Origin: a virus
Lineage: Duplodnaviria; Caudoviricetes
Length of the DNA: 64,000 nucleotides
Strand: one strand, 5' to 3'
Virus record (IMG/VR): IMGVR_UViG_2773857716_000001
Location: 28,559 to 92,558 of that record
The translations under genes were made by a program, and so were the position numbers. Each line of letters begins with the position of its first letter. The stretch's first letter is position 1. The notes below the pieces were generated by a model. That model did not search any database, was not told the origin of the DNA, and saw nothing but the letters and a program-made list of their open reading frames with translations. Positions 6,114-20,003 of the stretch are shown in pieces.

Positions 6114-7577
6114 TCACGCCGCAGACCGGGACTGGACGGTCAGCAGTCCGCCCTGCTGGCCGCCGGAGGGGCAGCCGAACGGGGAGCAGCCCTGCACCTC
6201 GTCCTCCTCTTCCTCCAGCTCCAGCTCCCCTTCGAAGGCCAGGTCGAGGAGGTCGCCCTGTTCGAACTCTCGGCGCTGTATGCGGTCGATGGGGGCCTGG
6301 TCCAGCGGCAGAGCCGAGATGTGTAGGAAGCGTTCGCCGTCCAGGCCTGGGCCGGTACGGAAGCGGTGGTCGAAGTCGACGGCGCGCTGCCACTCGGCGG
6401 GATTGGTGTCCCGCATGCGGCGCCAGGAGGCGTTGGAGCGGTACGGGCAGAAGTAGCAAGCGGACTTCGGGGTGGAGGCCCAGCCGCGGGAGGCGAGGTA
6501 TGCCCGGCACTGGGTGCGGGTCATGTTCAGTTCCAGCAGCGGGTGCCGGCTACGGCTGTAGCGGGAGTCCTTGATGTCGGAGGCTCGGTCGATTTCGTCG
6601 GTGGAGAACCCGACCCACTGCTCGACCCACTTTCCGGCCGGGGGCTGGCCGATGCGGCTGAGGCTTCCCAAGCCGCCGCAGACCGAGCACTCGCCGGTCT
6701 CGTCCTCACCGCGCTTGGCGCGCCAGGGAGCGACGCGCTGCCCGGCGCCGTCGCACTTGTTGCAGGGGCGCTCGGCGCCGGCCTTGGCGCCGAGGAGGAG
6801 GCGGACCTGCTCCATGATTCCGCGGATCTTGTATTTCTGGGTGCAGAAGCGTCGGATCATGCCCAGGTCGCGTTCCTGGACCATCTGCCAGGCCACCGGG
6901 ATCCGTCCGCTGGAGTTGCAGCTCGCGCACGGGGCCGGCATCACGTCGAGTCCCAGTCGCTTCATAGCTCGGGCCACGGTAGCTTCCGGGACCGGCGCAT
7001 AGCCATCCTCCGGACCCATCGTGGGGTTCTCGGCGGCGGCCTGCTCCAACTCGGCCAGCGTCACCCGGCCGTTCTCGCGACGCCTGGCAGCCATAGGAAG
7101 CTCATCGAAGAGCCCCCTCCATGCCTTCTGGTCGGCCAGGACCCGGAAGCGAGCCCACCCGCAGCCTTCGCCGGCGCCGTCCAAGCCGTCATCGGATGTC
7201 GTGGTCTGGCCGCACAGCTTCCACGCGGCGACCCGCTTGACCGTGCGCCACTTCGAAGCGGTGAATGCCGGGATGGACGACATCTTGTTCGGGTCGAACA
7301 AGTCGTTGTCGAGGTTGCCGTACTGGACGCGGATGATGGGGATGCCGGCCGGGCGGGCAATCTCCCGCTCCAGGCGGTCGAGGTGGTCGTACACCTCCTG
7401 CGGCTCTGCGCCGGTGTCAGCGAAGATCGCGTAGTCCAGCTTGGGGAGCACGCCCTCTGCGGACAGCATCAGTAGCGTCGTGGACTGCACCCCTGCCCCT
7501 AGGGACAGGACCCGCAGTGTTGGGGTGTCGGTGACGTCGCCCTCAATGACTCGCTTGGCGACGGTGGAGATGGTCAT
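6114..7577 (-). CDS. PAPS-reductase / adenine nucleotide alpha-hydrolase family protein with Zn-finger insertions
   Basis: VLSLGAGVQST (PP-loop variant), AIFADTGAE, CTQKYKI, VGFSTDE, KSACYFCPY; start MTIST after GGAAAGGA RBS. Confidence 0.75.
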   Translation of the reverse strand: MTISTVAKRVIEGDVTDTPTLRVLSLGAGVQSTTLLMLSAEGVLPKLDYAIFADTGAEPQEVYDHLDRLEREIARPAGIPIIRVQYGNLDNDLFDPNKMSSIPAFTASKWRTVKRVAAWKLCGQTTTSDDGLDGAGEGCGWARFRVLADQKAWRGLFDELPMAARRRENGRVTLAELEQAAAENPTMGPEDGYAPVPEATVARAMKRLGLDVMPAPCASCNSSGRIPVAWQMVQERDLGMIRRFCTQKYKIRGIMEQVRLLLGAKAGAERPCNKCDGAGQRVAPWRAKRGEDETGECSVCGGLGSLSRIGQPPAGKWVEQWVGFSTDEIDRASDIKDSRYSRSRHPLLELNMTRTQCRAYLASRGWASTPKSACYFCPYRSNASWRRMRDTNPAEWQRAVDFDHRFRTGPGLDGERFLHISALPLDQAPIDRIQRREFEQGDLLDLAFEGELELEEEEDEVQGCSPFGCPSGGQQGGLLTVQSRSAA

Positions 7578-7711
7578 GCGGAGGTCCTTTCCGTGAGCAG
7601 GGTCTGTGGGCCGCGTGGGTGGCGCGGCAACGGGTGAGGCCGGGAGGGCCGGAGCGACGACCGCTTCGGCCGGCACTTCCCGCCCCTCCACATCCAGCTG
7701 CGCACCTGTCA

Positions 7712-9337
7712 TCAGGCGGCGACCGCCAACTTCGCGGCGCCGCCCTGCTCCTCGTAACGAGACAGTTCCTCGCCGCTGATGGCCTCGACCAGCGCGCACA
7801 GCAGCACCTCGGCGGCGTTCGGCGTGACGGCGTTCCCGTACTGGCGCACCCGCTCCCGCTTCGAGCCGAGGACCGTGTAGTCGTCAGCAAAGGACATCGC
7901 GCGGCCGATCTCGTGCGGCTCAAGCATGCGGAACCGCACATCTTCGATGGCCGGCTGGCCGTTCACCAGGGCGTACCGGTCCCGAGTCGTCAGGGCACCC
8001 ACAGGGGCGGTGACGGGCCGGGCGGCGCCGTTGCCGTAGTACGGGACCAGGAGGTGCTCGGTGATGCTGTCCGGAGTGACCAGGCCGTGATGGTTGCCAG
8101 AGGCGCACACGGTGGCGAGGGCCTCGGAGACGGAGCGGGCGACTGATCCGCCGCCGCGCAACTCTGCGACGAACGGCAACCAGGCCAATCCCGTTTCGTT
8201 GCGGGTGGTCTGCGCTCGCAAAGGCAGGGCCGCCGAGGTCGCAGACTTCCCGTCTCGTCCTTCGACGGGCACCATCAGCGGCGGCACCGCGAGCGCGTCG
8301 TTCTCGCGGGTGGTGCGGGTCGGCATGGGATCCAGCACGCTTGACGCGTCGTTGCGCCATGTCCCGCCCGCGGGAACCATCATCGGCACCGGGGTGGCGA
8401 ACCGCTCCAGTCCGGCCTTGATCCGGGCGAGGGTCTTGTCCGCCAGGGGCCGGGCCCGGTCGCCGATGCGCTGGCCGGGGATCGACCAGTCGATCGCAGC
8501 CAGCGCGGGCAGCGCATCCGGCTCCACCACGCTGTTGCGGCACGTGGTGTGAGGGCAGCGGTAGACGTACTGCTGGCGGTAACGACCCATGTCGACGCCA
8601 GGGCGCTTCCACGACTGCACGGCCCGCACCCACTCGTCGCACGTCTCGCACCAGGCCCGCGGCCGCAGCCACTTGTCCCAGTCAGGCGTGCGGCCCAGCG
8701 ACTCGTGCCAGTAGCCGACGTACAGCCGGTCACGGGACTGCGGGGCCCGGTGAACGGTGCGGGGGTCGGCGTGCATGCTGTTCAGGGCGATGATGTGGGT
8801 GCGGTAGCCCATCTTGTGGATCTCGCCGATCCACCGGTCCCACTGGTCCCACGACCGCACGTCCACGACGTTCTCGACGATGCCGGCCTTGACCAGGCCG
8901 CCGCGTTCTATGACACCCCGCAGGTACAGCGGCACCTCCTCCATCAGCGCCCGGGACTCTTCCTCCAGCGTCGGGCCGCCCTCGTCGTCGGCCTCGAACT
9001 TGCTCTGCTCGATCGCGGCGTACAGGTCGAGGAGATCGCCCTGCATCGCGTTGACGAAGTCCCGCTTCTTGCCCTTGGCCACGCTCCAGTTGGTGCACTC
9101 CGGAGACGCCCAGAAGATGTCGGTGACCGGCCACGCCCACACCGGCGCCTTGCGGATGTCGCCGCGGTAGTGGTCGGCGTCCGGGAAGTTCGCGGCGTGC
9201 GACTCGATCGCCCGCTCCCAGTGGTTCGCCGCTCGGGCCACCCTCAGGCCAGGCACGGCGTGCGCGCCCTGGGAGGAGCCGCCGGCCCCGCAGAACCAGT
9301 CCATGACGGTCAAAGCGTCGTTGTCGTTGCGGTACAT
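7712..9337 (-). CDS. DNA (cytosine-5) methyltransferase
   Basis: Motif I DWFCGAGG, IV WASPEC, VI ENV, VIII QSRDR, X QYGNAV. Confidence 0.9.
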   Translation of the reverse strand: MYRNDNDALTVMDWFCGAGGSSQGAHAVPGLRVARAANHWERAIESHAANFPDADHYRGDIRKAPVWAWPVTDIFWASPECTNWSVAKGKKRDFVNAMQGDLLDLYAAIEQSKFEADDEGGPTLEEESRALMEEVPLYLRGVIERGGLVKAGIVENVVDVRSWDQWDRWIGEIHKMGYRTHIIALNSMHADPRTVHRAPQSRDRLYVGYWHESLGRTPDWDKWLRPRAWCETCDEWVRAVQSWKRPGVDMGRYRQQYVYRCPHTTCRNSVVEPDALPALAAIDWSIPGQRIGDRARPLADKTLARIKAGLERFATPVPMMVPAGGTWRNDASSVLDPMPTRTTRENDALAVPPLMVPVEGRDGKSATSAALPLRAQTTRNETGLAWLPFVAELRGGGSVARSVSEALATVCASGNHHGLVTPDSITEHLLVPYYGNGAARPVTAPVGALTTRDRYALVNGQPAIEDVRFRMLEPHEIGRAMSFADDYTVLGSKRERVRQYGNAVTPNAAEVLLCALVEAISGEELSRYEEQGGAAKLAVAA

Positions 9338-10233
9338 CAGGCGGCGTTCCTTTCGCGGTTGGCGGCAGTCGCGCGGGCGATGAGCGCGTCAAGGAAGTGC
9401 TCGAACGGCATCGGCTTCCGCTCCGGCGCCAGCCCCGGGACCTCCATGCCGAGGACACCCTTCTGCCGGGCGCCCTCCTTGATCTGCGTGAGGACGTCGG
9501 GGCGTTGCCAGTTCTCCTTGGCCTGCTCGTAGAACTTGGCGAGGATCGCGCCGGCCACCGGATCCGGCGACTCGCTGGCTGGCGGCGCCTGCTCGGCACC
9601 GCGACCTTCGGCAGGGACGGACGCGTCCTGAGTTGCGTCCGGCTCCGGCTCGGGCTGGACGGGCGGATCGACCGGCTCGGGCTGCGGTTCCGTGTCCTTC
9701 TGCCATTCGTTCGGCGGGTGCGGTGCCGAGAAGTGCACCACCGCGTCCGACTTCCCGCCGTTGTACAGGCCCAGGCCGAACTGGTCGCCGAGGTTGACCG
9801 CGCACCGCTTGAGGGCCTGGGACAGGGCCGTCTTCATCGCCATGTCGTGGGCGTCGCCCAGCTTCGGCTGGTTGATGGCGTCGCCGGCCGCGCCGTCTTC
9901 GAAGTGGGTGATCTCGCGGCCATCGGCGGCGTACACAGTGAGGCGGACCTGGGCGCGGTAGACGACGGTCCAGCGGCCCGGCTTGATCTCCTGCTGGGAC
10001 ACCAGGTCCAGGGAAAGCGTCTCGATGGAGAAGCCGCCGAAGCCGAAGATGCGGATCAGGTGACGGCGGACGTCCCAGGCTTCGACGTAGGACTGTCCTT
10101 GCGTATGGCAGACGCGGTTGCCGGCGATGCCCTTGTGCAGCATGCGGAGCTGGACGGGGGTGAAGCGGGGGGCCTGGTTTTGGGTGTGCTGGGTGGGGCC
10201 CTCCGCGGTTGCGGGGGCCTGCGTGTTCGCCAT
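9337..10233 (-). CDS. Rad52/Rad22 (Sak-like) single-strand annealing protein
   Basis: SYVEAWDVRRHLIRIFGFGGFS...AHDMAMKTALSQALKRCAVNLGDQFGLGLY. Confidence 0.85.
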   Translation of the reverse strand: MANTQAPATAEGPTQHTQNQAPRFTPVQLRMLHKGIAGNRVCHTQGQSYVEAWDVRRHLIRIFGFGGFSIETLSLDLVSQQEIKPGRWTVVYRAQVRLTVYAADGREITHFEDGAAGDAINQPKLGDAHDMAMKTALSQALKRCAVNLGDQFGLGLYNGGKSDAVVHFSAPHPPNEWQKDTEPQPEPVDPPVQPEPEPDATQDASVPAEGRGAEQAPPASESPDPVAGAILAKFYEQAKENWQRPDVLTQIKEGARQKGVLGMEVPGLAPERKPMPFEHFLDALIARATAANRERNAA

Positions 10234-11159: not shown

Positions 11160-11220
11160 CAGTTTCCTCCTTCTACCTTGGGTTGGGCTAACAGGTTGGT
11201 GCGGTGTTCTGGAACCACAG

Positions 11221-11257
11221 TACACGAACCTGTTTGCTTAACACCAGGTTCAATGTA
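11221..11257. promoter_or_regulatory. inverted repeat in a divergent promoter region (operator candidate)
   Basis: tacacGAACCTG-N12-CAGGTTCaatgta, AT-rich, between divergent genes. Confidence 0.5.
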
Positions 11258-11290
11258 GTGTGGGGTTACGTCCTACCGAGGAGCGCCCCA

Positions 11291-11575
11291 ATGCGACACA
11301 CCCGCCGCGCCATCCGAGCCGCACACGCCACAGGCCACGCCCTCCTGGCAGCCGCCTGCGGACTCGTTGGCCTCCTCCGCTACGCCGCCGACACCGGCCG
11401 CACCGTCCGCATCGCCTACGTCAAGGAAGACGGCACCGCGTCGATCCGGGACATCCGCCCCGAGCAGGTCCGACGCAGCAAGGCCGGCTACCTGTACGTC
11501 CGCGCCCACGACTTCCTCCGCGACGCGGCCCGCTCCTTCCGCCTCGACCGCATCACCGCCCTGGAGACCGCCTGA
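11291..11575 (+). CDS. stand-alone WYL domain protein
   Basis: VRIAYVKEDG...RDIRP...YVRAHDFLRDAARSFRLDRI. Confidence 0.85.
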   Translation: MRHTRRAIRAAHATGHALLAAACGLVGLLRYAADTGRTVRIAYVKEDGTASIRDIRPEQVRRSKAGYLYVRAHDFLRDAARSFRLDRITALETA

Positions 11576-11636: not shown

Positions 11637-12077
11637 ATGGCCACAACCTCCCAGCCCAAGACCCTGGACCTACTCCGCATTGCCACGAGCCTGGTTACCG
11701 AGAACATTCGGCACGGCTCCCCGTCGATGTTGATGCGCCGCATCAACCAGGACCACGGCATCAGCATCGGCTTCGAAACCGCCCGAGCTCTGCTGATCGA
11801 CCTGTACGCAGCAGGAATCGTCGCCGCCGTGGATCGAAAGACCCACGCCTACCCGGTGTTGCTGGAGCGTCAGGCCGCCCTGACTGCCCTGGAGAGCTAC
11901 GTCGGCAGCGGAACCACGGACCGGCAGACGCTGTATGAGTGCCCCCAGTGCTCCCGCGTCGCCGCGTGGACCGACGGTCGCAAGGTCTCCGCTGGCGACG
12001 AGGTCGACGAGTTCTGGTGCCAGACGTGCGGGGCGGAGGTGCCGCTGAGCGGCTGCACCATCGTTTCCACTGCCTGA
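11637..12077 (+). CDS. FtsK gamma-like winged helix fused to a Zn ribbon
   Basis: LLRIATSLV...GSPSMLMRR...IGFETARALLIDLYAAGIV resembles the FtsK-gamma consensus; CPQC...CQTC; AAAGGAG RBS. Confidence 0.6.
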   Translation: MATTSQPKTLDLLRIATSLVTENIRHGSPSMLMRRINQDHGISIGFETARALLIDLYAAGIVAAVDRKTHAYPVLLERQAALTALESYVGSGTTDRQTLYECPQCSRVAAWTDGRKVSAGDEVDEFWCQTCGAEVPLSGCTIVSTA

Positions 12078-12189
12078 CCCCAGGAACGACGAAGGCCACC
12101 GCCCCGAACCGGGTGGTGGCCTGAACACGCGCCGCGTACAACGCGGACAGTGTACCCGCGGACCTCACCACCCCACAAGGAGAAGGCAC

Positions 12190-12522
12190 ATGACCGCACA
12201 CCCCACCGCTGGATCGAGGGTCCGCATCGTCATCGAGGACACCATCGAGTCCTTCGACTCCGGCACCCTCCGCACCACCGGAGGTGTCTACATCGAATCC
12301 CTCGGCGAGCCGGGAGCCCTCACCCTCCAGGTCCTGGAGCCCGGCTGGCAGCTCGGCGACATCGTTCACGACGGCCGCGACCAGCTCGTCCGCATCAACA
12401 AGGGCGACGGCGTCCACGTCTGGCAGCGGCCCAACGGCTACGTCACCTACGACGACGAGACCAACCTCGCCAGCCTCCGAGTCATTCGTACCGCCTCCAC
12501 CCGAGTCGGCAAGGAGAACTGA
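12190..12522 (+). CDS. hypothetical protein
   Basis: ORF with RBS and GC3-rich codons. Confidence 0.6.
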   Translation: MTAHPTAGSRVRIVIEDTIESFDSGTLRTTGGVYIESLGEPGALTLQVLEPGWQLGDIVHDGRDQLVRINKGDGVHVWQRPNGYVTYDDETNLASLRVIRTASTRVGKEN

Positions 12523-12524
12523 CC

Positions 12525-12794
12525 ATGGGCGCCTACGCCACCGTCTTCGTCCTGAGCATTGTCAGCATCGGCACCGACATCACGCTCTACCTGAAACGGC
12601 GCATCAACCTGAAGGGTGCGGCCGCCTGGTTCGCCCTCACCATGCTGACGCTCGCCCTCGCCGCCGGATTCGCAGGCTTCACCCGAACCGCGCTTCTGGC
12701 CACCATCTCAGCAGTCGGCATGTCCTTCACGTGGTGGGGGCTCGTCCAACAGAAGGCCCCCCAGACGCGATCGTCGGGGCGGACCGCCCCGTGA
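12525..12794 (+). CDS. small three-TM membrane protein
   Basis: Hydrophobic segments; AAGGAG RBS. Confidence 0.6.
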   Translation: MGAYATVFVLSIVSIGTDITLYLKRRINLKGAAAWFALTMLTLALAAGFAGFTRTALLATISAVGMSFTWWGLVQQKAPQTRSSGRTAP

Positions 12795-12994
12795 CGTCCC
12801 GCCCGCAGCAACCGTCCCTGCCCATCCCCGAGCAGGGACGCAGCCGCATCTGGTGCCGCGGCGCAGGCTGCCACCACGAACTCACCGACCCGGAATCCCG
12901 CAAGCGCGGATACGGGCCCGTCTGTGACCCCGAGACCCGCAACCGCGACCCGCGCACCGAGCACGTCGACCAGGACACCATCCCCGGCACGTGA
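12791..12994 (+). CDS. DUF6011-like Zn-binding protein
   Basis: C....CHHELTDPESRKRGYGPVC. Confidence 0.6.
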   Translation: MTSRPQQPSLPIPEQGRSRIWCRGAGCHHELTDPESRKRGYGPVCDPETRNRDPRTEHVDQDTIPGT

Positions 12995-13004
12995 GGAGCC
13001 AACC

Positions 13005-13208
13005 TTGACCAGCCCCGCGTACTACGACCAGGACAAAGACCCCTTCGGCCCCTTCGAATACGTTGAACCCGGCGACCGGTGCCAGGGTGCAGAAGGGGAT
13101 TGTGACGGCATCCGAAGTCGATGCACGGGGCGCGCCAGCACCTGCCGCTGCATGTGCCCGGCGTGCTGCGGCGATACCCCAGACGTGTGGGGCGCCCCGG
13201 TCTACTGA
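13005..13208 (+). CDS. small Cys-rich protein
   Basis: TTG start after GAGGAG; CRCMCPACC. Confidence 0.5.
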   Translation: MTSPAYYDQDKDPFGPFEYVEPGDRCQGAEGDCDGIRSRCTGRASTCRCMCPACCGDTPDVWGAPVY

Positions 13209-14206
13209 CGCCCGGCCGCCTGCTCCTGCGCCCACTCCACCCCGCGGCGCCACTGCTCCACCCTCAGCGGCAAAGGAGACCACGGACCCGGCCCCTTCCA
13301 CCGCGCCGCCAACACCCCGTTCAGCCGCGCCATGCCCGCACTGAACCCCATCCGCAGGCCCTGCGCCCTCAACGGCATGCCCGCCTCGTACGTCTGCCCC
13401 ACACCCCCAACCAGGCGGCCCATCCTCTGCACCGTCACCCACAACATGCCGTGATCCGACCCCTCCAGTCCAGCCACCAGCTCGTCACGGAACCGCAGCC
13501 ACCGCCCCAACGCCGCTACCGTCCCGGGCGACAACACCGCCGGCTCCGCACGGGCCCGGCCCCAGCCCTGCGGAGTCCACACCCCCTCCACCCACGGATC
13601 GCCCTCGTCGAGGTGCACATGCTCCACCCGGCGAGTAGCCAGGTCACCCGAGCGCATCCGCGAATCCAGCACCAGCCCGGCACACGCCAACGACCGCGCC
13701 ATCAAGGCGTCCACCGGGGCGTCACCCGACAGCCACACCAGCCGCTCGTACACCGCCTCCAGCTGCGCAGCCTCCGCCACCGGCGCCAGGTCCAGCCGCT
13801 CCCGGTACACCCGCGGCGCCACCACCTGCACCCCGACCTCCTCGCCGAGGATGACGATGCAGTCCCGCAGCATCGCCCGGGTCGACCACGGCAGCGGCTT
13901 TCCCAACAGCTTCGCCTTGTCCGGGTCCCGGAACGCGCCCTCGCTGGCCAACTCCAAGAACACGTCCACCGACTCCGCGGCCAGCAGCCGCTTCACCGAC
14001 CGGCCGCAGCCCTCCGGCATCCCCTCATGCCCCACCGCCAAGCCCAGCTGCCGCACCGTCGCCCGCAACTGCCGCGCCCGCGAAGGGGACACCAGCCGGC
14101 CACGCTTCAACGCCGGCCGCGCCTCCCACCGGTCCGGGTCCCGCGGCGCCACCCGCTCCACCACGCTCTCCAGCCGTCGGATCGCCGGTGGTCCCTGCTC
14201 TGCCAC
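13202..14206 (-). CDS. divergent tyrosine-recombinase-like protein apparently lacking the C-terminal catalytic Tyr region
   Basis: RSLACAGLVLDSRMRSGDLA (box I-like); ends shortly after LRVEQWRR. Confidence 0.55.
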   Translation of the reverse strand: MAEQGPPAIRRLESVVERVAPRDPDRWEARPALKRGRLVSPSRARQLRATVRQLGLAVGHEGMPEGCGRSVKRLLAAESVDVFLELASEGAFRDPDKAKLLGKPLPWSTRAMLRDCIVILGEEVGVQVVAPRVYRERLDLAPVAEAAQLEAVYERLVWLSGDAPVDALMARSLACAGLVLDSRMRSGDLATRRVEHVHLDEGDPWVEGVWTPQGWGRARAEPAVLSPGTVAALGRWLRFRDELVAGLEGSDHGMLWVTVQRMGRLVGGVGQTYEAGMPLRAQGLRMGFSAGMARLNGVLAARWKGPGPWSPLPLRVEQWRRGVEWAQEQAAGRQ

Positions 14207-14208
14207 GC

Positions 14209-15315
14209 CTACTCCCCTCTCTGCTGCTGCGCCATCACCCGCGCCACCGCCGCCGGGTCCACCGACGACGGATCAGCACCCAGCGCGGCCGCCACCGCCC
14301 GCACCAGGGCAGCATCGACCTCGGGCACAGTCTCCCCTGACAGGGCCGTTGCCAGGGCCTCAACCGTCGCCCGCCGGCCACGTCCCCGGTCGTAGCGTTT
14401 CGTGGTGTTGAGGCTGGCGTGCCCGACCAGGTCAGCGACGTCCTCGATGTCCTGCCCGGCGTCCCGCAGCAAAGTGACCGCGGTGTGCCGCAGGCCGTGC
14501 GGCGTCACCCCCGTATCCAGGCCGGCGGAGGCAAGGAGTGTCTTGAGGAGGTAGGCGACCTGCTGACGGGTTATGCGGGCGCCCTTGTCGCCGAGGAACA
14601 GGGGCCCGCGCCGTTCGCCGCGGTAGTCCTTGAGGGCAGTGTCTACCTGGTCGGGCAGGTCGATGTTCTGCTTCTTGCCGCCCTTGCGCTTCACCCGGAT
14701 CGCGGGGCCGTCGTTCTTGCGGACGAGGTCGGTGCAGTCGGCGGCGCACACCTCGGAAACCCGCAGACCGCAGTGGAGCAGCACGGCGATCAGCGCGTAG
14801 GCCCGCAGCCCGGACGCCTCCGCCACGTCGAGGAGCCTGCGGGCCTCGTCGAGGTTGAGGCTCTGCGTCGCCGACTCGTCATCGACCATGGGCCGTTCGA
14901 CGTACTGGAAGGGGTTCTCGTCCACCAGGGCGCGGTGCTTGCGCACGCAGTACGTGTAGAAGGAGGACACCCCCGACATACGGCGGGCGACAGTGGTGGG
15001 CGGGAAGCCGTCCTTGATGCCGTACCGGGTGTGGTGCCGGCCGTGGAGGAGGTGCTCGCGCCACAGGTCGCAGTGGTGCTGCTCAGCCGCGAGAGGGTCG
15101 CCGCCGAGGGTGGCGCAGAACGTGAACCACTCGCCGAGGTCGCGGCGGTAGGCGTCGCGGGTGTTGGTGTTGGCCTTGGACAGGAGGAAGAGATCGCGGA
15201 GTTGCTCGTGTGGGAGCGGTGCGCGCTGCTGGACGCCTGTGTCGGTGGCTACGGCGGGGAGGCGATCGTCGTCCACCAGCTCGGCGTCGACCACCTCCAG
15301 ATCGGTCCCGGTCAC
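14209..15315 (-). CDS. XerC/D-like tyrosine recombinase (resolvase/integrase)
   Basis: GLRVSE, KRKGGK, PHGLRH, VGHASLNTTKRYD; N-terminal SAM-like NTRDAYRRDL. Confidence 0.92.
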   Translation of the reverse strand: MTGTDLEVVDAELVDDDRLPAVATDTGVQQRAPLPHEQLRDLFLLSKANTNTRDAYRRDLGEWFTFCATLGGDPLAAEQHHCDLWREHLLHGRHHTRYGIKDGFPPTTVARRMSGVSSFYTYCVRKHRALVDENPFQYVERPMVDDESATQSLNLDEARRLLDVAEASGLRAYALIAVLLHCGLRVSEVCAADCTDLVRKNDGPAIRVKRKGGKKQNIDLPDQVDTALKDYRGERRGPLFLGDKGARITRQQVAYLLKTLLASAGLDTGVTPHGLRHTAVTLLRDAGQDIEDVADLVGHASLNTTKRYDRGRGRRATVEALATALSGETVPEVDAALVRAVAAALGADPSSVDPAAVARVMAQQQRGE

Positions 15316-15331
15316 GGCTGCATCCGGTTGG

Positions 15332-15661
15332 TCATGCTGCGAACTCCTGACGGAAGGAGTGACCGCATGGGCTCATGCTGATGAGCTGCGCAACCCCTGC
15401 GGCTTCCCGGATGTGGGTGAAGTCGGCGTCCTCGTAGGCGAGGATCGACTCCGTCTCGACCGTGGACACTTCGGCGTGACAGTGGGGACAGCGGTAGTCC
15501 ATGCGCGCAATGACCGGGCCCCGCCGCTCGGCGGCCGCGAAGGCTGAGCGGAGGTTCTGGCTCATCTGCGACGTCCAGTCGCCGGTTGCGAGCTTGTACG
15601 CGGCGATGGGGCCCTCGAACTCTCGGTACCTCGCGTGCAGAGGAAGCTGTTGAGTGCTCAT
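15332..15661 (-). CDS. hypothetical Zn-ribbon protein
   Basis: CPHC...PCGH; first gene of the recombinase run. Confidence 0.5.
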   Translation of the reverse strand: MSTQQLPLHARYREFEGPIAAYKLATGDWTSQMSQNLRSAFAAAERRGPVIARMDYRCPHCHAEVSTVETESILAYEDADFTHIREAAGVAQLISMSPCGHSFRQEFAA

Positions 15662-15672
15662 GACCTTGACGC

Positions 15673-15704
15673 TAACAGCGATTCTCCATAATCGCTGTTA
15701 TGGA
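15673..15704. other. dif-like / resolvase site made of two overlapping dyads
   Basis: TCCATAA-tcgctg-TTATGGA (15685-15704) overlapping TAACAGCGATT-ctccat-AATCGCTGTTA (15673-15700), upstream of the recombinase genes. Confidence 0.6.
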
Positions 15705-15738
15705 ATCCCCGGATACGGAGGACGTGTCCGAATCTTCG

Positions 15739-15990
15739 TCAGGAGCGATTCTCCGCCGAGGCGTTCCAAGCGGCACCGGCGCGAGCTTCCGCCCGAGCCG
15801 CACTCCGCGCGTTGCAGCCATAGCACCCTAGGGCAGCGAAAGCCGGCAGCCCCTCGGGATCAGGGTTGGCCGCCGCCTTGGTGAAAGGGAGGTACCAGCC
15901 GTCCGGGGTGCCGCACTCCTTGCACCACCTCTGCTGCAACTGCCCTGGCACGTATCCGTCAATGGTCACCGGCAGGCGCTGTTCTCTCAT
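15739..15990 (-). CDS. small CxxC-CxxC protein
   Basis: WCKEC...GCYGC. Confidence 0.4.
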   Translation of the reverse strand: MREQRLPVTIDGYVPGQLQQRWCKECGTPDGWYLPFTKAAANPDPEGLPAFAALGCYGCNARSAARAEARAGAAWNASAENRS

Positions 15991-16978: not shown

Positions 16979-17287
16979 ATGAGCGGCAAGAAGCCCCGCC
17001 TGATCCCCACCGGCAACTGCTGGTGCGGCTGCGGCAAAGAAGTCGGCCTCGGCAAGTTCTTCGCCGCCGGCCACGACAAGGCCGCCGAATCCGCCCTCAT
17101 CGCCCTCAAATACGGCGGCTCCGTACCCGAGTTCCTCCACGCCCACGGCTACGGCCCCCAGCACTCCGTCAGCCACGCCGCCGTCGAAGCGGGAGCCTGG
17201 ACGACGTGCGCGCACTGCGACTACATGGGAGCCCCGGCCAGCGTCCGCAACCACACCCGCAAGAACCACCCCGACAAGGAGAACTGA
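16979..17287 (+). CDS. Cys/His-rich Zn-binding protein
   Basis: CWCGCG...FAAGHD...CAHC...NH...H. Confidence 0.65.
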   Translation: MSGKKPRLIPTGNCWCGCGKEVGLGKFFAAGHDKAAESALIALKYGGSVPEFLHAHGYGPQHSVSHAAVEAGAWTTCAHCDYMGAPASVRNHTRKNHPDKEN

Positions 17288-18059: not shown

Positions 18060-20003
18060 TCACGGGGCCAGAACCTCCCGCCACGCAGCCACAATCCGCC
18101 GCGACAGATACACATGGCCCGCATCCGTCGGATGCACGTTGTCGCCACCCACGTAGGACGCTGCGTTCCCCGACGTGATCCACGCCCCCTGCGTCGTGAT
18201 CAACGTGCCCGTCGCGTCGTACACGCTGCCCGTGATCGGCGACACGAACGGGAACCCCGCCGCGGCCGCCTGCGTCCGCAACGTCGCGTCCGTGTTAGTG
18301 ATCGACCCAGCCGGACTCGCCGTCGGCGCCCAACACCCAATCACCAGCACCTGGCACGCGGGCAGACCGCTCTTCACCGCGGAGAACAGCGACGCTGCCG
18401 CAGTGCCGATCGACGACTGGCTGCCCGTGTTGTCGTTGTACCCACCCCAGATCACCAGGCGCGTCGGGGCCCACGCCACCACGTCCGCGGCCACACGATC
18501 CCCGAACGTCGCATACGAGCCGGGCGTGATGTAGCCGGTCCCGCCCCTCCCCTGCTCCCACGCATCCGTCGCGCCCAGCAGCCGGGCCGCCCGTGCGAAC
18601 CACGTGCCCGCGCCCGCCCCGGTGTTCTGCGCCGAGCCGTCGCTGATGGAGTCGCCGAGGACCATCAGCCGGCCCCCCTGCAGCGGCACCCTCCACATCG
18701 TCGCCGACGGAGGCAGGTACACCCCGCCGAACGGCATCGTGTAGAAGTCCAGGCGGACCCTGCGCGGCGCAGCGCTACCAAGGTCGACGGTGAGCATGTG
18801 CCCGGAGCCCGCCGTCGTCCCGCCACTGGACTGCATCAGGTCGGTAACCTTCCGACCATCGATCGACAGCCGGTACATCGTCGAGCTGGAGATGTACTTG
18901 AACCGCAGCTGGAAGACCTGGGCGTCCGTCCCGAACTCCACCGACCAGATTCCTTGGCCGCTGCTGTAGGTGTTCGGGTACTTGCTGGTCGGGAGGACGT
19001 AGTTGGTGTCGGGGCTGGACGCGCCGATCGCGAAGTTGCCCGCGCCCGCGTAGGCGTACGGGCCGGTCACGTCCGAGCCGGACAGGGCCACCAGCGGAGG
19101 CGCGTACTTGATGTAGCCGGTGGTCGGCGTCGTCGTCTGCGCGGTGCTGATGGTCGGGGCGCTGCCGGTGTACAGGCTGTCGGCCACCACCGGGTCCGGC
19201 AGGTCGCGGCGGCGCCACAGTGTGGCCGGGTCGCCCGGATCGCCCTTGTCGCCCTTCGGGCCTGTCGCCCCGGTCGGCCCGGTTGCTCCCGTCGGGCCCG
19301 TACTGCCCGTCGCACCCTGGGGCCCTGCAGGGCCGACGTCGCCTTGGTCACCCTTGGGGCCCTGGGCGCCAGCGGCTCCCGCTGGCCCTGCAGGACCGGT
19401 GTCTCCGGTGTCGCCCTTCGGCCCGGCAGGACCCGTCGCGCCGGTGGCCCCCTGCAGGCCGGTTGCTCCCGCGGGGCCCGGATCGCCCTGGGGGCCGGCA
19501 TCCCCTGTTGCTCCCGGCTCGCCCTGCAGGCCCTGCTCGCCTTGCGGTCCCTGTGCCCCTGTGGCGCCGGTCGGCCCGGCGGGGCCCGTGGCTCCCGTCG
19601 GGCCGACCTCGCCCTGCGGGCCCTCGGGGCCCGGCACGTACACGATCGTCCCCGCGCCCAACGGCGCGCCCGACAGCGCGATCCGCACGTCGCCGAGCCA
19701 CCACGGCTCGTCGGACTCCGGCACCACCACGTACGTCGTGTTCGGGGTGCCATCCAGTGCCCGGCCCTCGGTTATCGCCCAGGCCGTGTCGCCAGCATCC
19801 GCGGTGATCTGCGCGTTCGGCGTCAGGTCCAGCTCCCACAGCCCATCCTCGTCGGGGGTGGCCGTGTCCTGCCCTGTGACCTCCCCCTGCGCGGTGGCGA
19901 CGTATCCGACGGCCCTCTCCCCCGCCAGGTCGACGAGGACCGCGGTGATCTGCACCCGCGTCGGGTCCGGTAGATCGAGGAGCTTGCCCCGAACGATGGT
20001 CAT
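18060..20003 (-). CDS. tail fibre-like protein: collagen Gly-X-Y stalk plus SGNH/GDSL esterase
   Basis: Long GXY run; VLGDSIS, GGTGY, GGYND, DNVHP. Confidence 0.85.

Follow-up and report, generated by a model that had tools for sequence, protein, structure and literature searches.

The plasmid-prophage P1, a low-copy circular replicon of ~90 kb with a partition system, resolves its dimers with Cre, a tyrosine recombinase that acts on a nearby palindromic site, loxP. In the Xer family, xerS lies immediately beside difSL, forming what has been called 'a single module', and dif-type sites consist of two 11-bp half-sites around a 6-bp central region (PMC5357621; this and the other PMC-numbered sources are cited from excerpts). 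XafT of TLC-phi is an example of a mobile element that carries its own Xer activator. Some phages encode FtsK_gamma, the gamma domain of FtsK, as a separate open reading frame (ORF) whose role is described as 'still unknown' (PMC8190038). Here we analyze a locus that shares features with each of these systems. It lies in a stretch of 64,000 nucleotides ("the window"), bases 28559-92558 of the single 92,558-bp contig of virus record IMGVR_UViG_2773857716_000001, and comprises a candidate recombination core site, genes for an Xer-like tyrosine recombinase (int368) and a second protein of recombinase fold (g334), and a gene for a 146-residue protein related to FtsK gamma (g146). An initial annotation, made from the sequence letters alone, had tentatively joined all four into one Xer-type module. 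Our data suggest that the region probably contains two separate things: a site-specific recombination unit, and g146 as an accessory gene.

A recombinase, its candidate site and an inactive partner

The replicon is a complete pZL12-like Streptomyces plasmid-prophage of 92.6 kb. CheckV assigns the 92,558-bp record a completeness of 100%, and its sole DNA-level relative in the phage database is pZL12 (GQ919031), a circular Streptomyces plasmid-phage of 90,435 bp. The replicon encodes both ParA and ParB, together with phage genes for a tape-measure protein, a portal, a large terminase and a repressor-like regulator; a search of the replicon for an FtsK/SpoIIIE motor found none. The relatives that we retrieved via g334, the integrase or g146 are all 86-93-kb contigs or complete circular Streptomyces plasmids, and none of the relatives found is embedded in a chromosome. 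We compared ten plasmids throughout, namely that of the window, pZL12 (L001), L002, L003, L004 (the same 88,119-bp contig as L006), L005, L007, L008, L009 and L010, and used the 72,556 plasmids of PLSDB as the database for plasmid-wide tblastn searches. The nearest relative overall is L003, whose g334 has 94% DNA identity to that of the window.

We found exactly one PF00589 gene on the whole replicon, int368, which is single-copy in the genome. Its product has a SAM-like N-terminal domain (PF02899) followed by the catalytic PF00589 domain, and residues R185, K211, H273, R276, H299 and Y308 are invariant across 21 aligned sequences (the window's protein and 20 of its 21 matches; the partial, 243-residue P0157 was left out). 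The int368 protein is an intact, active-looking Xer-like tyrosine recombinase. The initial annotation had described it as intact and XerD-like. The invariant R-K-H-R-H-Y set bears out the first part, and the closest solved relatives are XerA and XerD. Since int368 scores only 146.9 bits against the XerC model TIGR02224 (cut-off 335.15) and 125.8 bits against the XerD model TIGR02225 (cut-off 329.6), it is Xer-like and not an orthologue of either protein.

Upstream of the operon that contains int368 and g334 lies a perfect palindrome, TAACAGCGATT-CTCCAT-AATCGCTGTTA, with 11-nt arms and a 6-nt spacer (15673-15700). It overlaps a second dyad, TCCATAA-TCGCTG-TTATGGA, at 15685-15704, and both sit in a conserved block of ~55 bp (15658-15712). 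The site follows immediately on the stop of the preceding gene, with 11 bp separating it from the operon's own first start codon, and the palindrome has the same geometry as dif-type sites. Its occurrence is more than chance: in the 92,558 bp, ATAA-N6-TTAT is seen once against 0.01 expected (200 Markov-1 simulations), and perfect 11-6-11 inverted repeats are seen three times against 0.05 expected. The TCCATAA-N6-TTATGGA element that was first proposed as the site is therefore real and above chance, and the 11-6-11 palindrome beside it is the stronger repeat. The other two perfect 11-6-11 repeats lie at ~6056 and ~50245 of the window (34614 and 78803 of the genome). A search of viral contigs for the palindrome gave 0 matches.

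We also identified an 11-nt direct repeat, AGCGATTCTCC, with one copy inside the site (15677-15687) and another at 15744-15754. We rejected the repeat as an accessory site because its second copy is coding and is kept in L003 with another integrase. It codes for E-N-R-S-stop, the conserved C-terminal end of the 83-aa gene upstream, and occurs in both L003 and L008. The repeat could be due to chance or could be a trace of the site's origin.

Comparison of the plasmids revealed that site and integrase vary together. Among the PLSDB plasmids, orthologues of int368 are found only in S. decoyicus NZ_CP109340 (L007) and S. platensis NZ_CP108975 (L008), with full-length identities of 92% and 91%. The 32-nt site block is identical in both, and site and integrase thus occur together in three of three plasmids. 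In a three-way alignment ~47 bp are invariant, from ATTCCATAA to TCATGA; the L007 DNA upstream of the site is unrelated to the window, and the first ORF downstream of the site, g109 in the window, is replaced in L007 and L008 by a 63-aa ORF unrelated to it. Between the window and L003, similarity ends 6 nt inside g334 and returns at 15715, 8 bp beyond the palindrome. The replacement segment in L003 holds another integrase (PF00589, E 8.3e-6) and its own 15-7-15 palindrome, centred on ATAA-N7-TTAT. Because the two breaks in similarity bracket both elements, we conclude that site and integrase were exchanged as one cassette. A third integrase type is found in L002, with CTCGTATAA-TTTCTA-TTATGCGAG 52 bp before the integrase start. 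In whole-locus scans, a palindrome of the ATAA-N6/7-TTAT type is unique within the locus in L002, L003, L007 and L008, and L010 has only a different 9-3-9 repeat. Across three integrase types, the site changes with the integrase and is constant when the integrase is constant.

The g334 gene starts 2 nt past the int368 stop, and its product belongs to the family phrog_6657 (E 1.1e-65). A Pfam scan and a direct sequence search against the PDB both returned no match for g334, and a PF00589 label is precomputed for 2 of its 43 relatives. We therefore rely on an AlphaFold2 model (pLDDT 82.5, from an alignment of the window's protein with 17 of the 43 matches), for which Foldseek returned 47 PDB matches at E<=0.001 over 300-350 columns, headed by Cre (5.4e-6), XerA, XerH, Tn1549 Int and lambda Int. 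The model predicts a two-domain Cre/Int fold. Of the 39 invariant columns in the 18-sequence alignment, none is a Tyr, His or Lys, and R, Q or P stands at the position of Arg I. An hhalign comparison with the int368 family (E 5.9e-5, probability 65%) pairs the catalytic Lys and the first His of int368 with Gln. Since its family keeps neither Tyr nor His nor Lys invariant, g334 is catalytically dead, cannot cleave and cannot serve as a second catalytic Xer subunit. The "divergent partner" of the initial annotation thus has the predicted recombinase fold without being a second catalytic subunit, and the replicon does not hold two catalytically competent paralogous subunits as in XerC/XerD.

A tyrosine recombinase gene lies directly upstream of the g334 homologue in 7 of the 10 plasmids, with gaps of -4 to 18 nt. 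This spacing stays tight whatever the integrase type, which is consistent with co-expression of g334 and the integrase. In pZL12 an EndoVII gene sits between the two. For the relative pSLE1, its authors reported 'two genes encoding putative integrases' (PMC4487206).

We consider it reasonably likely that the site, the variable ORF behind it, int368 and g334 form a system for plasmid multimer resolution like Cre/lox or XerS/difSL, and that g146 is independent of it. The locus has the hallmarks of a resolution system: one site per replicon, located beside the recombinase, on a partitioned circular low-copy plasmid. In our model, each copy of the site within a plasmid dimer would have its arms bound by int368 dimers. 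Strand exchange by int368 across the 6-bp centre would then yield monomers, which would be segregated by ParAB. Occupancy of the site by int368 probably also represses or throttles the operon, since the first start codon is 11 bp away. The inactive g334 would most likely enter the synapse as a non-cleaving subunit with an architectural or regulatory part.

Table 1. Features of the locus, with positions in the window.
Feature	Position	Strand	Description
WYL-domain gene	11204-11575	plus	PF13280, E 4.6e-11; precedes g146 and marks the start of the variable slot
g146	11637-12077	plus	146 aa; FtsK-gamma-like winged helix (~8-90) and 4-Cys Zn ribbon (~95-145)
g334	13202-14206	minus	334-aa protein of predicted tyrosine-recombinase fold without catalytic residues; phrog_6657
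int368	14209-15315	minus	368-aa Xer-like tyrosine recombinase; PF00589 (4.6e-28) and PF02899
g109	15332-15661	minus	small Cys-rich ORF, first gene after the site; variable operon member
candidate recombination core site	15673-15704	none	perfect 28-bp palindrome overlapping a second dyad

Several points weigh against dimer resolution by this unit. We infer binding and resolution rather than take them from experiment. The two dyads overlap, and either could be the crossover site. The palindrome is predicted to fold stably as RNA (z -2.9), and because the three copies of the site are identical, a protein site and an RNA hairpin are not separable by their variation. Whole-locus scans of L001, L004, L005 and L009 found no comparable palindrome near the integrase. 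The g334 homologues of L009 and L010 match in two different frames and are possibly broken, and g334 is kept while integrases change, which is odd for a subunit that contacts a specific integrase or site. A contact between g146 and the recombinase is possible, since the residue of g146 equivalent to the XerD-contacting Arg of FtsK (R34, see below) is invariant. Integration into a chromosome is a further, unlikely possibility, as an attB with a short core would be missed by our 32-nt search.

In the integration reading, the palindrome is the core of attP, int368 is the integrase, and g109 or g334 are directionality factors of an integration/excision module. The integrase does adjoin its site in the style of temperate phages, with a small variable ORF between them, and the authors of pSLE1 noted two integrase genes and considered chromosomal insertion possible (PMC4487206). 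Yet the relatives are all free circular plasmids or whole contigs, the replicon carries ParAB, and the site is a simple symmetric core with no evident arm-type repeats. A tRNA scan of the window found no tRNA. The 32-nt site was also absent at <=3 mismatches from 401 Streptomyces genomes (a set that, like the 201 genomes below, takes in the unpublished G133), a search that a short attB core would escape. We regard an integration module as unlikely.

We find it quite unlikely that the palindrome is purely regulatory, either as an operator of the int operon for some repressor or as a terminator or attenuator hairpin, with int368 acting elsewhere. Its place directly behind one gene's stop and 11 bp before the next start codon would suit such a role, as would the predicted stable RNA hairpin, but the palindrome has no T-tract, and promoter and terminator prediction at the locus made no call. 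The same arms recur as an apparent terminator after a gene in one metagenome contig (n=1), an unrelated low-GC sequence whose match we rejected as chance. At our locus the loop and flanking bases are conserved as well as the stem, and the geometry is that of Xer core sites. The palindrome also changes with the integrase type and otherwise stays the same, a co-swap that regulation leaves unexplained. An Rfam scan gave one sub-threshold match only (M23, E 0.11, 25.7 bits against a cut-off of 41.2).

g146, an FtsK gamma homologue in a variable slot

A HMMER search with g146 returned 98 proteins at E<=0.001, among them full-length and N-domain-only matches and many C-domain-only matches. We aligned the N-terminal part of g146 with the 12 of these 98 whose matched region corresponds to residues 3-99, giving a 13-sequence family alignment (A1). 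On its own, g146 scores 13.2 bits against PF09397 (E 0.074) and does not reach the cut-off of 30.6; PF09397 was likewise not matched in the scan of full-length g146 at E<=0.1 or in a six-frame scan of the genome. All 13 A1 sequences match PF09397 at E<=1, the best at 1.5e-12. The A1 profile matches the solved gamma domains 2j5o, 2ve8 and 2j5p over the whole domain at E ~1.5e-5, ranked behind spurious, repeat-driven PPR matches that have no single significant stretch. The profile also matches the gamma end of chromosomal FtsK in three of three host genomes (frames of ~950 aa), and of FtsK frames of 900-1090 aa in 201 of 201 Streptomyces genomes at E 1e-13 to 1e-16 (the 200 other than G133 all match too). 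In a MAFFT alignment, the g146 family and host FtsK have in common the pattern S-x-S-M-L-x-R ... G-F-x-x-A ... G-I-V-G-P ... V-L, and g146 differs from host FtsK by a six-residue insertion between helices 2 and 3, before helix 3. By these sequence comparisons, the N-terminal domain of g146 is a true but remote homologue of FtsK gamma.

The AlphaFold2 model of g146 (pLDDT 87.6, from 42 rows comprising the window's protein and 41 of the 98 matches) shows a three-helix winged helix followed by a beta-rich Zn ribbon. Foldseek with the full model returned generic winged helices and no match at E<=0.001. The FtsK gamma chain 2ve8_E gives the tightest superposition (rmsd 1.8 A over 68 columns, TM by target 0.76) and ranks 48th in the list. 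As 2ve8_E ranks so low and all E-values exceed 1e-3, the fold alone identifies g146 as a generic winged helix-turn-helix, whereas profile homology (~1.5e-5, and PF09397 in 13 of 13 sequences) places it with FtsK gamma. A structure search of the ESM Atlas named FtsK_gamma, and a direct sequence search of g146 against the PDB gave a chance match only (E 0.35), which we rejected.

The Zn ribbon contains four Cys within residues 95-145 (11925-12074 of the window), in the pattern YECPxC...DEFWCQTCG. It matches no Pfam family, the best hit being Lar_restr_allev at E 0.016. Most of the 98 g146 matches are to this module, in stand-alone proteins of 50-110 aa or in fusions (with HTH_3 in P0023). The suggestion that the 146-aa protein resembles FtsK gamma joined to a Zn ribbon has thus held up, as remote homology to the FtsK gamma of 201 of 201 Streptomyces genomes together with the four Cys. 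Such a protein may have arisen when a gamma domain captured from FtsK was fused to a Zn ribbon, and it would act as an optional DNA- or protein-binding factor.

Two sets of positions bear on what g146 might bind. The residues aligned to positions 1296, 1300 and 1303 of E. coli FtsK, which we take to be contacts to the FtsK orienting polar sequences (KOPS), read E, A and I in g146 and differ between family members. R34 is the equivalent of E. coli R1289 and is invariant in 13 of 13 members of the free-gamma family; we matched the two residues through the E. coli gamma chain, the domain numbering of PMC8190038 and a MAFFT alignment. In the XerD-gamma structure, XerD E183/E184 and FtsK R1289 matter most, change of R1289 hurt recombination most, and the XerD-binding and KOPS-binding surfaces of gamma overlap (PMC5052618). 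Because of this overlap, the invariant Arg does not separate an XerD role from a KOPS role. On the recombinase side, the 'GEE' of XerD aligns with 'PDQ' in int368, so that the position of E184 is a Gln (the offset from chain to residue number in XerD was inferred by counting).

We next consider the distribution of g146. A tblastn search of the PLSDB plasmids found it in two records only, NZ_CP046906 and CP042280, neither of which has an int368-type integrase (their integrases are 23% identical). These two records and the two with int368 orthologues do not overlap, so the co-occurrence expected from a four-part module is not seen. By tblastn g146 is absent from L007 and L008, the two plasmids that share integrase and site with the window. 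In L003 it is present at 98% identity, next to an integrase without a tblastn match to int368 and a different palindrome. Overall g146 is found in 4 of the 10 plasmids, always right after the conserved WYL gene, and accompanies unrelated integrases in L003, L009 and L010; the integrase unit occurs without it in the other 6. The slot is elsewhere filled by unrelated small genes, in pZL12 by a gene for a GmrSD_N-domain protein. In the window, the recombinase operon runs convergent to g146, on the other strand and four genes away. From its distribution and position, g146 looks like an accessory gene in a variable slot and not like a part of the recombinase unit. Of the linked module first proposed, recombinase, partner and site stay together (in the three plasmids, and swapped jointly in L003), and the gamma protein drops out.

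Another reading takes g146 as a mobile FtsK-gamma mimic acting in trans. It would either switch on int368/g334 or the host Xer proteins without a septum-bound motor, or occupy the targets of gamma and so blunt host FtsK or the TraB-type translocases of competing plasmids, with g334 as a universal adaptor for interchangeable integrase-site cassettes. We hold this to be decidedly doubtful. Very unlikely is the original proposal, that g146 is a free FtsK gamma that activates int368/g334 at a dif-like site and so allows multimers to be resolved in hyphae independently of the septum. In its favour, g146 is a genuine gamma homologue with an invariant R1289-equivalent Arg, XerD is activated by isolated gamma (PMC3130261), XafT sets a precedent for a phage-encoded Xer activator, and int368 is Xer-like with a site of dif geometry. 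Against it, neither of the two other plasmids that have this integrase and site carries g146, and g146 keeps company with unrelated integrases, stands apart on the other strand in an interchangeable slot, and would face a recombinase with Gln in place of E184, the partner of R1289, and a catalytically incapable g334.

Relatives of g146 exist outside this plasmid family. A search for related loci with g146 found only L015, which has the Zn ribbon alone, and one with P0018 found no relatives in viral contigs. Gamma-only proteins of 112-122 aa, mostly from Actinomycetota, form clusters of 87 and 75 members in the ESM Atlas, and an 87-aa relative of g146 is named 'DNA translocase FtsK' by NCBI. 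Ten genomes have a second A1 match, which in 9 of 10 lies in an open frame of 818-7003 aa; only that of G080 is short (195 aa). This gene (in L061, G080:C40:77000-94000) has a canonical gamma-only match at 8187-8372 (PF09397, 73.8 bits) without the insertion and lies in a chromosomal region that resembles a mobile element. No integrase turned up among the six neighbouring ORFs that we scanned; they include an APH-domain protein, a GntR/UTRA regulator and a Bro-N/ANT protein (antirepressor). We also considered g146 as a small-terminase-like protein (cf. phage Sam46) and rejected this, the large terminase being 32 kb away.

Neighbouring genes

Family scans of g109 gave no match above cut-off, and a PADLOC scan of g146, g334 and the small genes gave no match. 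The WYL gene has homologues in L002-L008, is annotated as WYL in L007-L009, and is conserved throughout the relatives. A DUF6011 protein (PF19474, E 1.4e-9; 12791-12994, plus strand) converges on the 3' end of g334 in almost all relatives, and its position is conserved as well as that of g334 itself. Flanking the variable integrase cassette is the gene for a 102-aa Cys-rich protein (16979-17287, plus strand; N-terminus MSGKKPRLIPTGNCWCGCGKEV), with 91-92% DNA identity in L003 and L005, which corresponds to pZL12.37 of pZL12.

Farther away, a 647-aa protein (18060-20003, minus strand), probably a tail fibre that includes an esterase domain, contains a long collagen-like Gly-X-Y tract; GDSL-type esterase/lipase is the annotation of its L007 and L008 homologues. 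A PAPS-reductase-like protein (phrog_424, E 1.1e-39) adjoins a 541-aa protein (6114-7799 and 7712-9337, both minus strand). In relatives, homologues of the 541-aa protein carry the annotation DNA cytosine methyltransferase, and the two proteins may be a DNA-modification pair. The counterparts of the single-strand annealing protein encoded at 9337-10233 (minus strand) are annotated as Rad52/Rad22 family in L007 and as ERF in L009; here, too, one recombinase type has been exchanged for another between plasmids.

Comparison with described systems

Plasmid-prophages must resolve dimers. In the literature that we searched, to which the original pZL12 paper did not belong, we found no description of a dimer-resolution system in Streptomyces plasmid-phages, and, with supplements likewise outside the search, no report of a protein of gamma domain plus Zn ribbon in them. 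Recombinase, site and partner together make up a coherent variant of plasmid resolution systems already known, one that is only partly described. It suggests an uncharacterised design in which an exchangeable cassette of active integrase and site is coupled to a conserved dead paralogue of the recombinase. If g334 is indeed a non-cleaving subunit, the locus would be a natural case of control of a tyrosine-recombinase tetramer by an inactive partner. For actinomycetes, the integrase-site cassettes could also become orthogonal recombination tools.

The nearest described layout is XerS/difSL. Like XerH/difH and archaeal XerA/dif, it has one Xer-family recombinase acting on two inverted arms of ~11 bp, as we propose for int368, and XerA and XerD are the best solved relatives of int368 by sequence. 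These single-recombinase modules are chromosomal, whereas int368 is encoded on a plasmid-phage and falls far under the cut-offs of the XerC, XerD, XerS and XerA models. Unlike them, the unit also follows the recombinase with a dead paralogue and has a perfect palindrome with an overlapping dyad as its site.

Cre/loxP resembles the unit in layout and in its plasmid-prophage setting, and Cre is the top structural match of g334. Apart from the fold, the unit is not related to Cre in sequence. The arms differ as well, 11-6-11 here and 13-8-13 in loxP, and the unit adds an inactive partner and a small ORF.

With XerCD/dif and FtsK gamma, the replicon shares a gamma-type winged helix and an Xer-like recombinase, with the key Arg kept. 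It differs from that system and from XafT in that we saw no co-occurrence of g146 and the recombinase across the plasmids, only one recombinase is catalytic, and the E184 equivalent is Gln. Compared with canonical gamma, g146 has the six-residue insertion and variable positions in the recognition helix. To the single FtsK_gamma genes of phages (PMC8190038), g146 adds a tractable member, distinguished by its Zn ribbon and the insertion between helices 2 and 3, and by a terminase that is 32 kb off and not adjacent.

Within the plasmid family itself, the closest described counterpart is pZL12.36c/pZL12.34c of pZL12. As in the window, an integrase/recombinase is followed by a g334 homologue (34% identity) in the same gene order. 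pZL12 differs in its intervening EndoVII gene, in its integrase type, and in having the GmrSD_N protein rather than g146 behind the WYL-type regulator.

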